DNA of 32,000 bases from Candidatus Heimdallarchaeota archaeon B3_Heim (lineage in GTDB: Archaea; Asgardarchaeota; Heimdallarchaeia; Hodarchaeales; Hodarchaeaceae). The notes below the pieces were generated by a model. The model was given only the letters and a program-made list of their open reading frames with translations. It had not been told where the DNA came from and searched no databases. Location: positions 1 to 32,000 of the forward strand of contig NJBF01000034.1 of the NCBI GenBank assembly GCA_003144275.1, written 5' to 3'. The first letter of the stretch is position 1; each line of letters opens with the position of its first letter. Positions 26,570 to 28,385 of this stretch are shown piece after piece. Made by a program: the position numbers and the translations under genes.

Positions 26570-27190
26570 ATGTCACGAGCAAAAATGGATTTCGCTGAGG
26601 GAATATTCCGCTCAAATTTCAAGGTGTGTGTGCTTGGTGATGGAGGGGTTGGTAAAACGGCAATTATTCAACATTTACTGGGTAGGGCGTTTACAACGAA
26701 TTATCTACTTACCATAGGAACAGATATTTCGACATTTCAGCTTCATCATAATGGCAAAAATCTTCGTCTGCAGCTTTGGGATCTGGCCGGCCAAACTCGA
26801 TTTGATGTTGTTAGGAACTTGTATTTTAGTGGTGCTCGTGCAGGTGTTCTTGTTTTTGACCTGACCCGTGAAACATCACTTCACTCCCTTGCTAAATGGA
26901 AAAAAGAAATCTTCAGCCATTCTCAACGAAAAGTTCCCCTACTTATACTTGGAAATAAGTCTGATTTGGATGGTTCTCATTTCTCCTATCTTGATCCTGT
27001 TGACAATTTCATCCAAGAGATTGAGAAAGAATACAATAATGAATATGAGAATAACGAATTACAGGTTCCTTTTCACACAACTTCTGCCAAAACAGGTAAT
27101 AATATCTTGAAAGCCTTTGATTCCCTTGGACAAATATTGTTGACCTATCAAAAACAGACTAGTGCTATTCCAAAAATTCCATTGGAATAA
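26570..27190 (+). CDS. Rab-like small GTPase
   Basis: GDGGVGKT, TIGTDI, RLQLWDLAGQ, YFSGA, LVFDLT, GNKSD and TSAK; no C-terminal Cys. Confidence 0.92.
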   Translation: MSRAKMDFAEGIFRSNFKVCVLGDGGVGKTAIIQHLLGRAFTTNYLLTIGTDISTFQLHHNGKNLRLQLWDLAGQTRFDVVRNLYFSGARAGVLVFDLTRETSLHSLAKWKKEIFSHSQRKVPLLILGNKSDLDGSHFSYLDPVDNFIQEIEKEYNNEYENNELQVPFHTTSAKTGNNILKAFDSLGQILLTYQKQTSAIPKIPLE

Positions 27191-27214: not shown

Positions 27215-28385
27215 TTACCGTGAAAAGTAATCTTTCATTTCTTCCAAGTGAACGCTTCCTAAATTCAAGGAAATTGGGGAAATTGTTATTAGTTTCTCCT
27301 CTAGTAAAACGTAACTATCGGTATCAATAGGTAAGTTGCTTTGCACTTGGCCCCAAAGCCAGTAAACAGGAATATTCCGTGGATCTAAAGCCTCAATTGC
27401 TTTATCAACGTACTTGACAGGACAGAGTTTAACAACTTTTATCTTTGTTGTTAGATCAACGCTATTGGGAAAGTTAACATTGAGAATTTTCACTGAATTT
27501 GGAAAAGGATTCGATAGAACGTGTGAAACAATTTCTTTGGCTCGTTTCGCTGCGATGTTAAATCTAGAAGAAGAATCCTGAGTTTTCTCGAAAAGTTCAT
27601 TTTCAGGTAGTTCTAAGGAAAACGCAAATGATGTAATTCCCAAGATACCTCCTTCTAATGCAGCTGCACAGGTGCCTGATGTGAAAATAGCATGAATTGA
27701 GGTATTATCACCATGATTTATTCCACTAAGGATGAAATCTGGGATTTTATTATACTGCTGCATACAAATTTTCTGACCAATGATTACGCTATCAGCTGGA
27801 GTACCATAAACAGAATAAGCCTGTATTTTCATGACTAGATTTGTCAGACAACTCTTGAAAAGAGTTCTGGACAGGATGAGTCACACATCCGCTATCCGGC
27901 AGATTAGCACCACTAAAAGGGTTACTATTCATTGGGACTACTTGAAGCATCCTTACTGCTGATATCCCCAGCGCTAATACCTCTCACGCCTAAAGGGTCA
28001 TTCTTCTCTTGCCTTTGACAGGTAACTCGTCTCACGTAGTTACAAGTGAATAAAACCCAAGAATTTAGGAATTTTTCTTTTCATCACCTCGCTTGGAAGA
28101 GGTTATGGAGGGAGACTTTTTATGAATATAAGAGAGAGGGAGAGGTTAGCGAATACGAGTAATCTCGCTTTGTCGGACAAAAATGATCATGTCATCGAGA
28201 AATTTCTCTTTCGCCTGAATTCTAACTGGTTGAGTATATGTTACTGATTTTCCTTTTCCTGATTGCTGTGTGGAAGGAGCAACGACAATAATGTCTCCTA
28301 AAGAACTCATTTCTTTAACTAGTTCCTTTAATCCTACGGCTTCTATGCCATCATCATTTGTAACTTAGAATAGCAAATATCCCAC
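27215..28385 (-). pseudogene. surE: 5'/3'-nucleotidase SurE, interrupted by a 358-bp insertion and an early stop/frameshift
   Basis: 5' part (not in track) GTG-GYLLF*VTNDDGIEAVGL...VVAPSTQQSGKG...KEKFLDDM joins in frame to the 3' part MKIQAYSVYGTPADSV...SGINHGDN...SGTCAAALEG once the insert is removed (~270 codons). Confidence 0.9.
27834..28191. mobile_element. Non-autonomous insertion element (MITE-like, possibly IS110/IS1111-type ends)
   Basis: Direct repeat TCATG at 27829-27833 and 28187-28191. Subterminal 12-bp inverted repeat TTTGTC(A/C)GACAA at 27840-27851 and 28170-28181. No transposase ORF. Confidence 0.8.

Follow-up and report, generated by a model that had tools for sequence, protein, structure and literature searches.

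The insertion that splits surE in the 32,000-nt stretch of DNA analysed here (the window) is, by homology, a miniature, protein-less derivative of a 1.4-kb element carrying only tnpB, formed via internal deletions, and the folded-looking region is its interior; the ~145 nt at the right end of the insertion correspond to a TnpB omega (guide) RNA scaffold. Judged by the same homology, this miniature element (hereafter MITE) has kept the left end together with the tnpB promoter and start region, a stem-loop that we call M, a closing helix, and the omega-RNA scaffold of the 3′ side, right end included. The comparisons argue for a real, structured and probably transcribed transposon that has no gene and specifies a TnpB guide RNA. 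We consider it most probable (roughly 0.8) that the region is the interior of such a derivative of a TnpB-only transposon from a Hodarchaeales-type Asgard archaeon, and that it makes a surE-guided RNA used in trans by TnpB, the CRISPR-ancestor nuclease. Gene-less omega-RNA elements are already known, and the element itself is ordinary, if well preserved; what the alignments add is the tnpB origin and wide conservation of the second stem-loop, M.

The element is 358 bp long (27830–28187, with the minus strand as its sense strand) and interrupts surE precisely at CATG. Its limits rest on copies with the same boundaries and on the in-frame rejoining of surE, as removal of the 358 nt brings the N-terminal part of the gene (28188–28364, minus strand, VTNDDG ... 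FLDDM) into frame with the C-terminal part, from KIQAYSVYGTPAD on (27215–27829, minus strand). The joined SurE aligns without gaps through the junction both with the 54% identical product of an uninterrupted orthologue from the related genome G014 and with a second, intact surE paralogue in its own genome (C19:85307-85864), which is 44% identical to the split gene. There is one CATG at the empty surE site and one on either side of the inserted element, at 28188–28191 flanking its 5′ side and at 27830–27833 closing its 3′ end (both minus strand). The interval that the original prediction read as a structured RNA (27850–28167) lies wholly within the insertion and is indeed richer in GC than its flanks, if modestly so (0.42–0.435 against 0.30–0.39). 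The insertion has disabled one of two surE paralogues, and with the second paralogue present the loss of the split copy may be tolerated. An in-frame TAA stands immediately before VTNDDG in the split gene (28352–28372, minus strand), where the orthologue reads MKLILVTNDDG; given this stop, the split copy may already be decaying, or its start codon may be unusual.

Within the 3.95-Mb genome of the same organism, 47 matches to a 381-nt stretch were found. Full-length MITE copies number ~17, all with common boundaries; five of them, including the surE copy, are 98–100% identical, the remainder are 68–79% identical, and three more young copies are interrupted by contig ends. Four further genomes of the same genus also have full-length copies. 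Every copy begins after a flanking CATG and finishes in CATG, and both ends, with this CATG included, form an inverted repeat of ~22 bp centred on an 11-nt palindrome (TTGTCNGACAA within the left end, 28166–28187, minus strand). Counts of the end pattern are 62 for the organism's own genome, 61 for G007 and 26 for G004, and the reversed control gives 0. Most copies are intergenic, and for at least three the longest open frame that removal of the element restores, a candidate gene at most, is on the opposite strand. Because the target CATG contains ATG, some copies are found where an open frame begins or close by, such as the one at C34:60544-60900, where a 316-aa frame is restored with the junction 16 codons from its first. 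At two 33-bp sites (C8:64499-64531 and C35:1462-1494), a left and a right end are fused over one 11-nt palindrome between two CATGs; these sites resemble the product of recombination or deletion between the end palindromes and may hint at a route of excision. The element is a sign that transposons were active recently in an archaeon closely related to eukaryotes.

Six of the matches span only the last ~115 nt, in sense orientation and several of them at contig ends, and two of these six are the 3′ end of complete tnpB genes (C61:11104-12354 and one on C57). Complete tnpB genes are also present on C44, C69 and C8, with open reading frames of 413–417 aa in which the Cas12f1-like TNB domain PF07282 (2.4e-22) and OrfB_IS605 PF01385 (4.5e-19) are recognised. 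The cognate TnpB is apparently intact, since five full-length open copies carry both domains and can be seen to have the GIDLG, E and NADxNAA motifs. The ~1.4-kb copies (hereafter IS copies) encode TnpB alone and share both their left and their right end with the MITE. Over its last ~115 nt, the MITE is 83–86% identical to the tnpB 3′ end and right end of the IS copies (77% for one copy), with the nearest IS copy reaching 97% identity over the last 74 nt. Furthermore, the last 87 nt can be read as the TnpB C-terminus: tblastn matches TnpB residues 389–417 in nine MITE copies, the surE copy itself scoring under threshold. In the surE copy, the relic of the last 17 tnpB codons, in the old frame, is at 27858–27908 (minus strand). 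The first ~125 nt of the MITE are collinear with the IS left end, CT-rich tract, TATA-like box and tnpB start, so that a relic of the tnpB promoter and start, with a putative transcript start, can be assigned to 28081–28130 (minus strand). Its TATA-like box (28116–28130) and the SD-like motif with ATG (28081–28092) had been noticed from the single sequence and prove to be conserved in 32 copies, whereas the 14-codon mini-ORF that had been read from that ATG is not, as most subfamilies stop after six codons. Close relatives of the parent element occur in MAGs titled Candidatus Hodarchaeota or Heimdallarchaeota.

Omega RNAs have three hallmarks (PMC12558985): they overlap the 3′ end of tnpB, they have a hairpin at the right end, and the loop of one hairpin forms a pseudoknot with the transposon-encoded motif at the terminus. 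All three are found in the element. On the minus strand, the scaffold comprises the closing helix of the omega core (27932–27970, with 88% of cells paired across the MITE alignment), a hairpin with covariation (27906–27926, in which five of six pairs change on both sides among MITEs), an invariant double helix that includes the GGATG/CATCC stem (27869–27897), the right-end hairpin (27850–27866), which has the strongest covariation of the element, and a 3′ tail (27830–27849) that ends in the transposon-encoded motif (27830–27836). A 7-nt loop at 27879–27885 is complementary to these last 7 nt of the element and is invariant within the family; in a sister TnpB family of the same genus (~37–40% protein identity, different ends), loop and terminal motif are both changed and still complementary. 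Pairing equivalent to the closing helix can be seen by eye in the IS tails, where a coding loop of ~95 nt takes the place of the ~25 nt to which it is shortened in the MITE, and the 5′ strand of this helix looks by eye like a relic of the Cys-Gly codons of the tnpB zinc finger. The IS copies also keep the hairpin equivalent to 27906–27926, with different sequences.

From the build of TnpB omega RNAs (PMC10691335, PMC10055086), the guide is predicted to be the ~20 nt of surE past the right end (27810–27829, minus strand). The proposal of a guide-type RNA retained by a mini-element was therefore right in kind, as the match to the tnpB 3′ end and right end indicates, and the failure to find a guide-target match inside the element follows from TnpB systems taking their guide from DNA immediately beyond the right end, in this case from surE. 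The family was misjudged, in that the likeness to IscB omega/HEARO RNAs gives way to a TnpB omega RNA, which has no Rfam match. Nor did the suggested bridge RNA hold up, as the parent element encodes TnpB only and Rfam again returned no match. No HEARO, group I or II intron or other Rfam family was found in the element at gathering score or at E ≤ 10, a result that applies to the IS110 bridge RNA only if Rfam includes such a model; apart from chance snoRNA-like matches, Rfam gave two tRNAs, both in other parts of the window.

The fold was analysed in an alignment of 32 full-length MITE copies from five genomes (A1), in which a structure of 55 pairs was tested; defined helices were chosen because subfamily signal overwhelmed an all-against-all screen of this alignment for covariation. 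The structure is 93.5% paired, compared with 33–47% when the 3′ partners are slid by 1–3 columns. Changes on both sides occur in 16 pairs, where shuffles give 7.9 ± 1.8, and the covariation score of 0.130 exceeds both that of the shuffles (0.080) and that obtained with slid partners (0.03–0.05); neither observed value is reached in any of 500 shuffles, a control that ignores the kinship of the copies, which the slid-partner control retains. The covariation comes from the right-end hairpin, the hairpin at 27906–27926 and the outer part of M. By this measure, two helices that are invariant in the family, GGATG/CATCC and the apical hairpin of M, neither support nor contradict the structure. Additionally, the ratio of G-U to A-C combinations (120:29) places the structure on the minus, element-sense strand, as had been argued from G-U pairing in the one sequence. 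Covariation among copies, which had been proposed as a check, is thus present and supports minus-strand folding; covariation alone is unable to separate an RNA from single-stranded DNA of the sense strand.

Three of the seven stems listed in the original prediction are real at their coordinates and family-wide, namely 27850–27866, which covaries with changes on both sides at five of seven pairs, and 27874–27890 and 28022–28043, which are kept across the family and invariant. The other four (CGAG/CTCG, AAAGG/CCTTT, the long-range ATTAGC stem and the nested GCTG/CAGC) fail: together they are 59.9% paired, and shuffles equal their pairing in 47 of 500 cases and their covariation in 212 of 500. 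An advantage in folding energy over shuffled sequences was likewise not borne out, with z = -1.34 on the sense strand, no better than shuffled, and z = -2.22 on the opposite strand, weakly better; single-sequence folding energy is uninformative here.

Stem-loop M (27996–28057, minus strand, 62 nt, with its apical hairpin at 28022–28043) is assigned from homology to tnpB and from covariation in distant genes. It is a piece of tnpB coding sequence, codons ~205–225, just past the RuvC-I GIDLG motif. In a short-word search, its core of 33–38 nt is 85–91% identical to tnpB nt ~624–664 (five of five IS copies, six of seven MITE subfamily representatives), and the corresponding IS sequence folds into the same hairpin. 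M is nearly invariant among the MITE copies and is the only mid-gene piece of tnpB that they retain. In the full IS, it lies ~540 nt upstream of the omega core, and we know of no described omega scaffold that reaches as far. Two one-off gene-less derivatives of the sister family, L131 (G020:C396) and L125 (G020:C447), lack M and join the left-end and promoter region straight to an omega region of ~165 nt (at about locus position 1400–1650), which means that M is not required merely for a short derivative to exist.

The constraint on M is also evident within tnpB itself. Codon identity at identical residues was calculated over 17 codon-aligned full tnpB copies (54–100% protein identity), and against a baseline mostly of 0.35–0.6 it peaks at residues 205–222 (0.79–0.90) and at residues 385–417, the omega and right-end region (0.77–0.90), the only two stretches of tnpB to stand out. 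By this measure, the synonymous-site constraint on M is as strong as that on the omega region. One genome per species was scanned, which yielded 415 relatives. From these, the 61 distinct tnpB genes with the commoner, 15-nt longer version of the M region were aligned gap-free (A3); they belong to several Asgard phyla, Thermoplasmatota, Methanolliviera and a few bacteria, at 32–44% protein identity. Here a three-tier stem-loop is 87.2% paired, compared with 78.5 ± 0.5 in shuffles and 32–57% with slid partners; 139 cells are changed on both sides against 46.6 ± 7.9 in shuffles, and compensation is seen at 13 of the 20 pairs, with a covariation score of 0.350 against 0.196. The compensatory changes are in part synonymous, at third positions of Ile and Pro codons, and in part alter both amino acids jointly. 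For M in tnpB genes, the ratio of G-U to A-C is 174:58. This alignment evidence marks M as an old structure of the sense strand that lies within tnpB. A covariance model of M matches the nine tnpB loci of both families found in the organism's own genome, including two fragmentary copies; built on the long variant, it finds one MITE-like copy only (E = 0.008) and is a poor detector of the MITE version. Our limited full-text literature search returned no description of an M-like stem-loop inside tnpB. Two more specific readings of M were dropped: a kissing interaction between its loop and the omega core, as the loop has only 3 nt in the MITE family and no complementary partner was seen, and a C/D-box or K-turn reading of a conserved GUGAUGA-like motif, in which no D box or tandem G-A pairs were apparent by eye.

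We propose that the retained promoter would drive a minus-strand RNA of ~250–270 nt that runs past the right end into surE, and that TnpB from the full-length copies would bind this RNA in trans. The guide would be the first ~16–20 nt of surE, from 27829 downward, and TnpB would be predicted to cut copies of the site that lack the insertion (CATG followed by the guide sequence), after which repair from the occupied copy would restore the element, resulting in homing or retention. As the element ends in CATG, the occupied site would also carry motif and target if CATG is the target-adjacent motif, a difficulty for this model, in which TnpB would have to be kept from cutting the element's own site. 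The retention model for TnpB elements and the use of stand-alone omega RNAs in trans follow published proposals (PMC10691335, PMC10055086). M, in turn, may be an RNA module that acts with TnpB or its RNA, as an extra protein-binding or RNA-stabilising domain or as an mRNA operator; M accompanies tnpB in lineages with differing transposon ends, which favours a role with TnpB or its RNA over one with a particular transposase. A broader reading, which we put forward tentatively and regard as possible rather than probable, is that functional RNA stem-loops of this kind, ~60–75 nt long and placed just after the RuvC-I codons, are carried by a large TnpB clade found in many Asgard lineages, in other archaea and in some bacteria. 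Such a stem-loop would be a second RNA element that works with the 3′ omega scaffold; it could, for instance, form the distal domain of a guide-RNA precursor in two parts, or an operator to which TnpB binds on its own mRNA. If so, the MITE would show the minimal RNA, all coding sequence having been shed save M and the scaffold helices.

The enzyme that moves the element was sought in several ways. The Pfam model of Y1 HUH transposases (PF01797) has no match in the organism's 94%-complete genome, in which controls matched. The sole serine recombinase, a Hin-like resolvase, adjoins a reverse-transcriptase gene rather than tnpB, and an 840-aa membrane protein on C8 with an HExxH peptidase-type motif, located between a left-end fragment and a 33-bp remnant, is no obvious transposase. 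An end-motif scan of 24 genomes of the order revealed no larger element, as all end pairs lie either ~0.35 kb or ~1.3–1.45 kb apart. Among the DDE-linked branches of TnpB, a solo TnpB between inverted ends has been reported (PMC10691335).

These results bear on whether the conserved hairpins, M included, might act as DNA, either as signals on a single-stranded transposition intermediate or as duplex palindromes bound by protein, with no functional RNA involved. IS200/IS605-type elements use end hairpins in single-stranded DNA, the covariation and the G-U (G-T) bias fit single-stranded DNA equally well, and the right-end hairpin would have both roles, as DNA signal and as RNA. We nevertheless judge a DNA-only function to be unlikely, considering the missing Y1 transposase, the presence of M with tnpB in lineages whose ends differ, the promoter relic conserved in the MITE, and ends that are 22-bp inverted repeats, typical of double-strand cut-and-paste elements (PMC10691335). 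A TnpB guide RNA made from the sense strand is our preferred reading of the fold.

Two further explanations were weighed against it. That the locus is a stand-alone regulatory small RNA, or a gene for a small protein of 14 codons, carried by the repeat by chance, would account for the conserved TATA-like box, SD-like motif and ATG; we find it very improbable, because the ORF is unconserved, the SD-like motif overlaps the ATG, and descent from tnpB explains the conserved parts. Still harder to credit is an intron, whether self-splicing, IStron-like or of the bulge-helix-bulge type, that is spliced from the surE transcript and leaves surE functional. The element is sense-oriented in surE, removal of exactly 358 nt restores the frame, and IStrons that combine introns with TnpB elements exist (10.1101/2023.11.20.567912), yet any insertion with a 4-bp target repeat gives such precise restoration. 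Moreover, the search at E ≤ 10 detected no group I or II intron, surE has an in-frame stop just ahead of its N-terminal motif, and the intergenic location of most copies, together with the antisense orientation of some to the interrupted open frame, leaves the earlier suggestion of a self-splicing remnant unsupported as well.

As a guide-RNA transposon, the element can be compared with several known systems. Two sources (PMC10691335, citing Altae-Tran 2021; PMC10055086) describe stand-alone omega RNAs that are mobilised and act in trans, as well as PATEs with an encoded omega RNA. Like these and other PATE-like IS200/IS605 derivatives, the MITE is gene-less, mobilised and multicopy, keeps the omega scaffold and right end, has a cognate tnpB elsewhere in the genome, and is expected to take its guide from the flank. 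It differs from them in having its own promoter relic and the extra mid-tnpB stem-loop M. IS200/IS605 PATEs, which move by Y1 'peel-and-paste', have asymmetric hairpin ends and lack terminal inverted repeats and target duplication, whereas the element described here has inverted repeats of ~22 bp at CATG, with CATG on both sides and one at the empty site, in a genome with no Y1 transposase. Solo and DDE-linked TnpB elements (PMC10691335) and Fanzor-bearing DNA transposons of eukaryotes (PMC3627910) are alike in that tnpB lies between symmetrical inverted ends, with its 3′ end ≤250 bp from the end of the element, and in that mobilisation in trans is presumed. In contrast to the DDE-linked elements, no transposase with matching ends was found in 24 genomes of the order, and in contrast to IS630, for which the target is TA, the target here is the 4-bp CATG. 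With the canonical TnpB omega RNA (ISDra2 structures and haloarchaeal sotRNAs, as summarised in PMC12558985 and PMC4615843), the element shares the tnpB 3′-end overlap, right-end hairpin and pseudoknot, and it differs in the extra conserved stem-loop ~540 nt upstream, in the RuvC-I coding region.

M is strongly constrained and covarying, lies within the tnpB reading frame, is spread over distant lineages, and was selectively retained when the derivative lost its coding capacity. Should M bind TnpB or control production of the guide RNA, it would be a missing part of the regulation or assembly of the CRISPR ancestor. If this is true, M would also be relevant to the engineering of compact TnpB editors, where the 3′ scaffold alone is normally supplied.

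Two minor observations concern tnpB of bacteria and the surroundings of surE. In the tnpB gene L175 of Caloranaerobacter sp., the same intragenic stem-loop (1105–1188) forms an almost perfect hairpin of ~30 bp with a folding energy of -27.4 kcal/mol over 75 nt, in which amino-acid changes on both strands preserve the pairs. In the window, surE is adjoined by a gene for a Rab/Ras-like small GTPase (26570–27190, plus strand, 206 aa, with a GDGGVGKT P-loop), and genes of this kind are typical of Asgard genomes.
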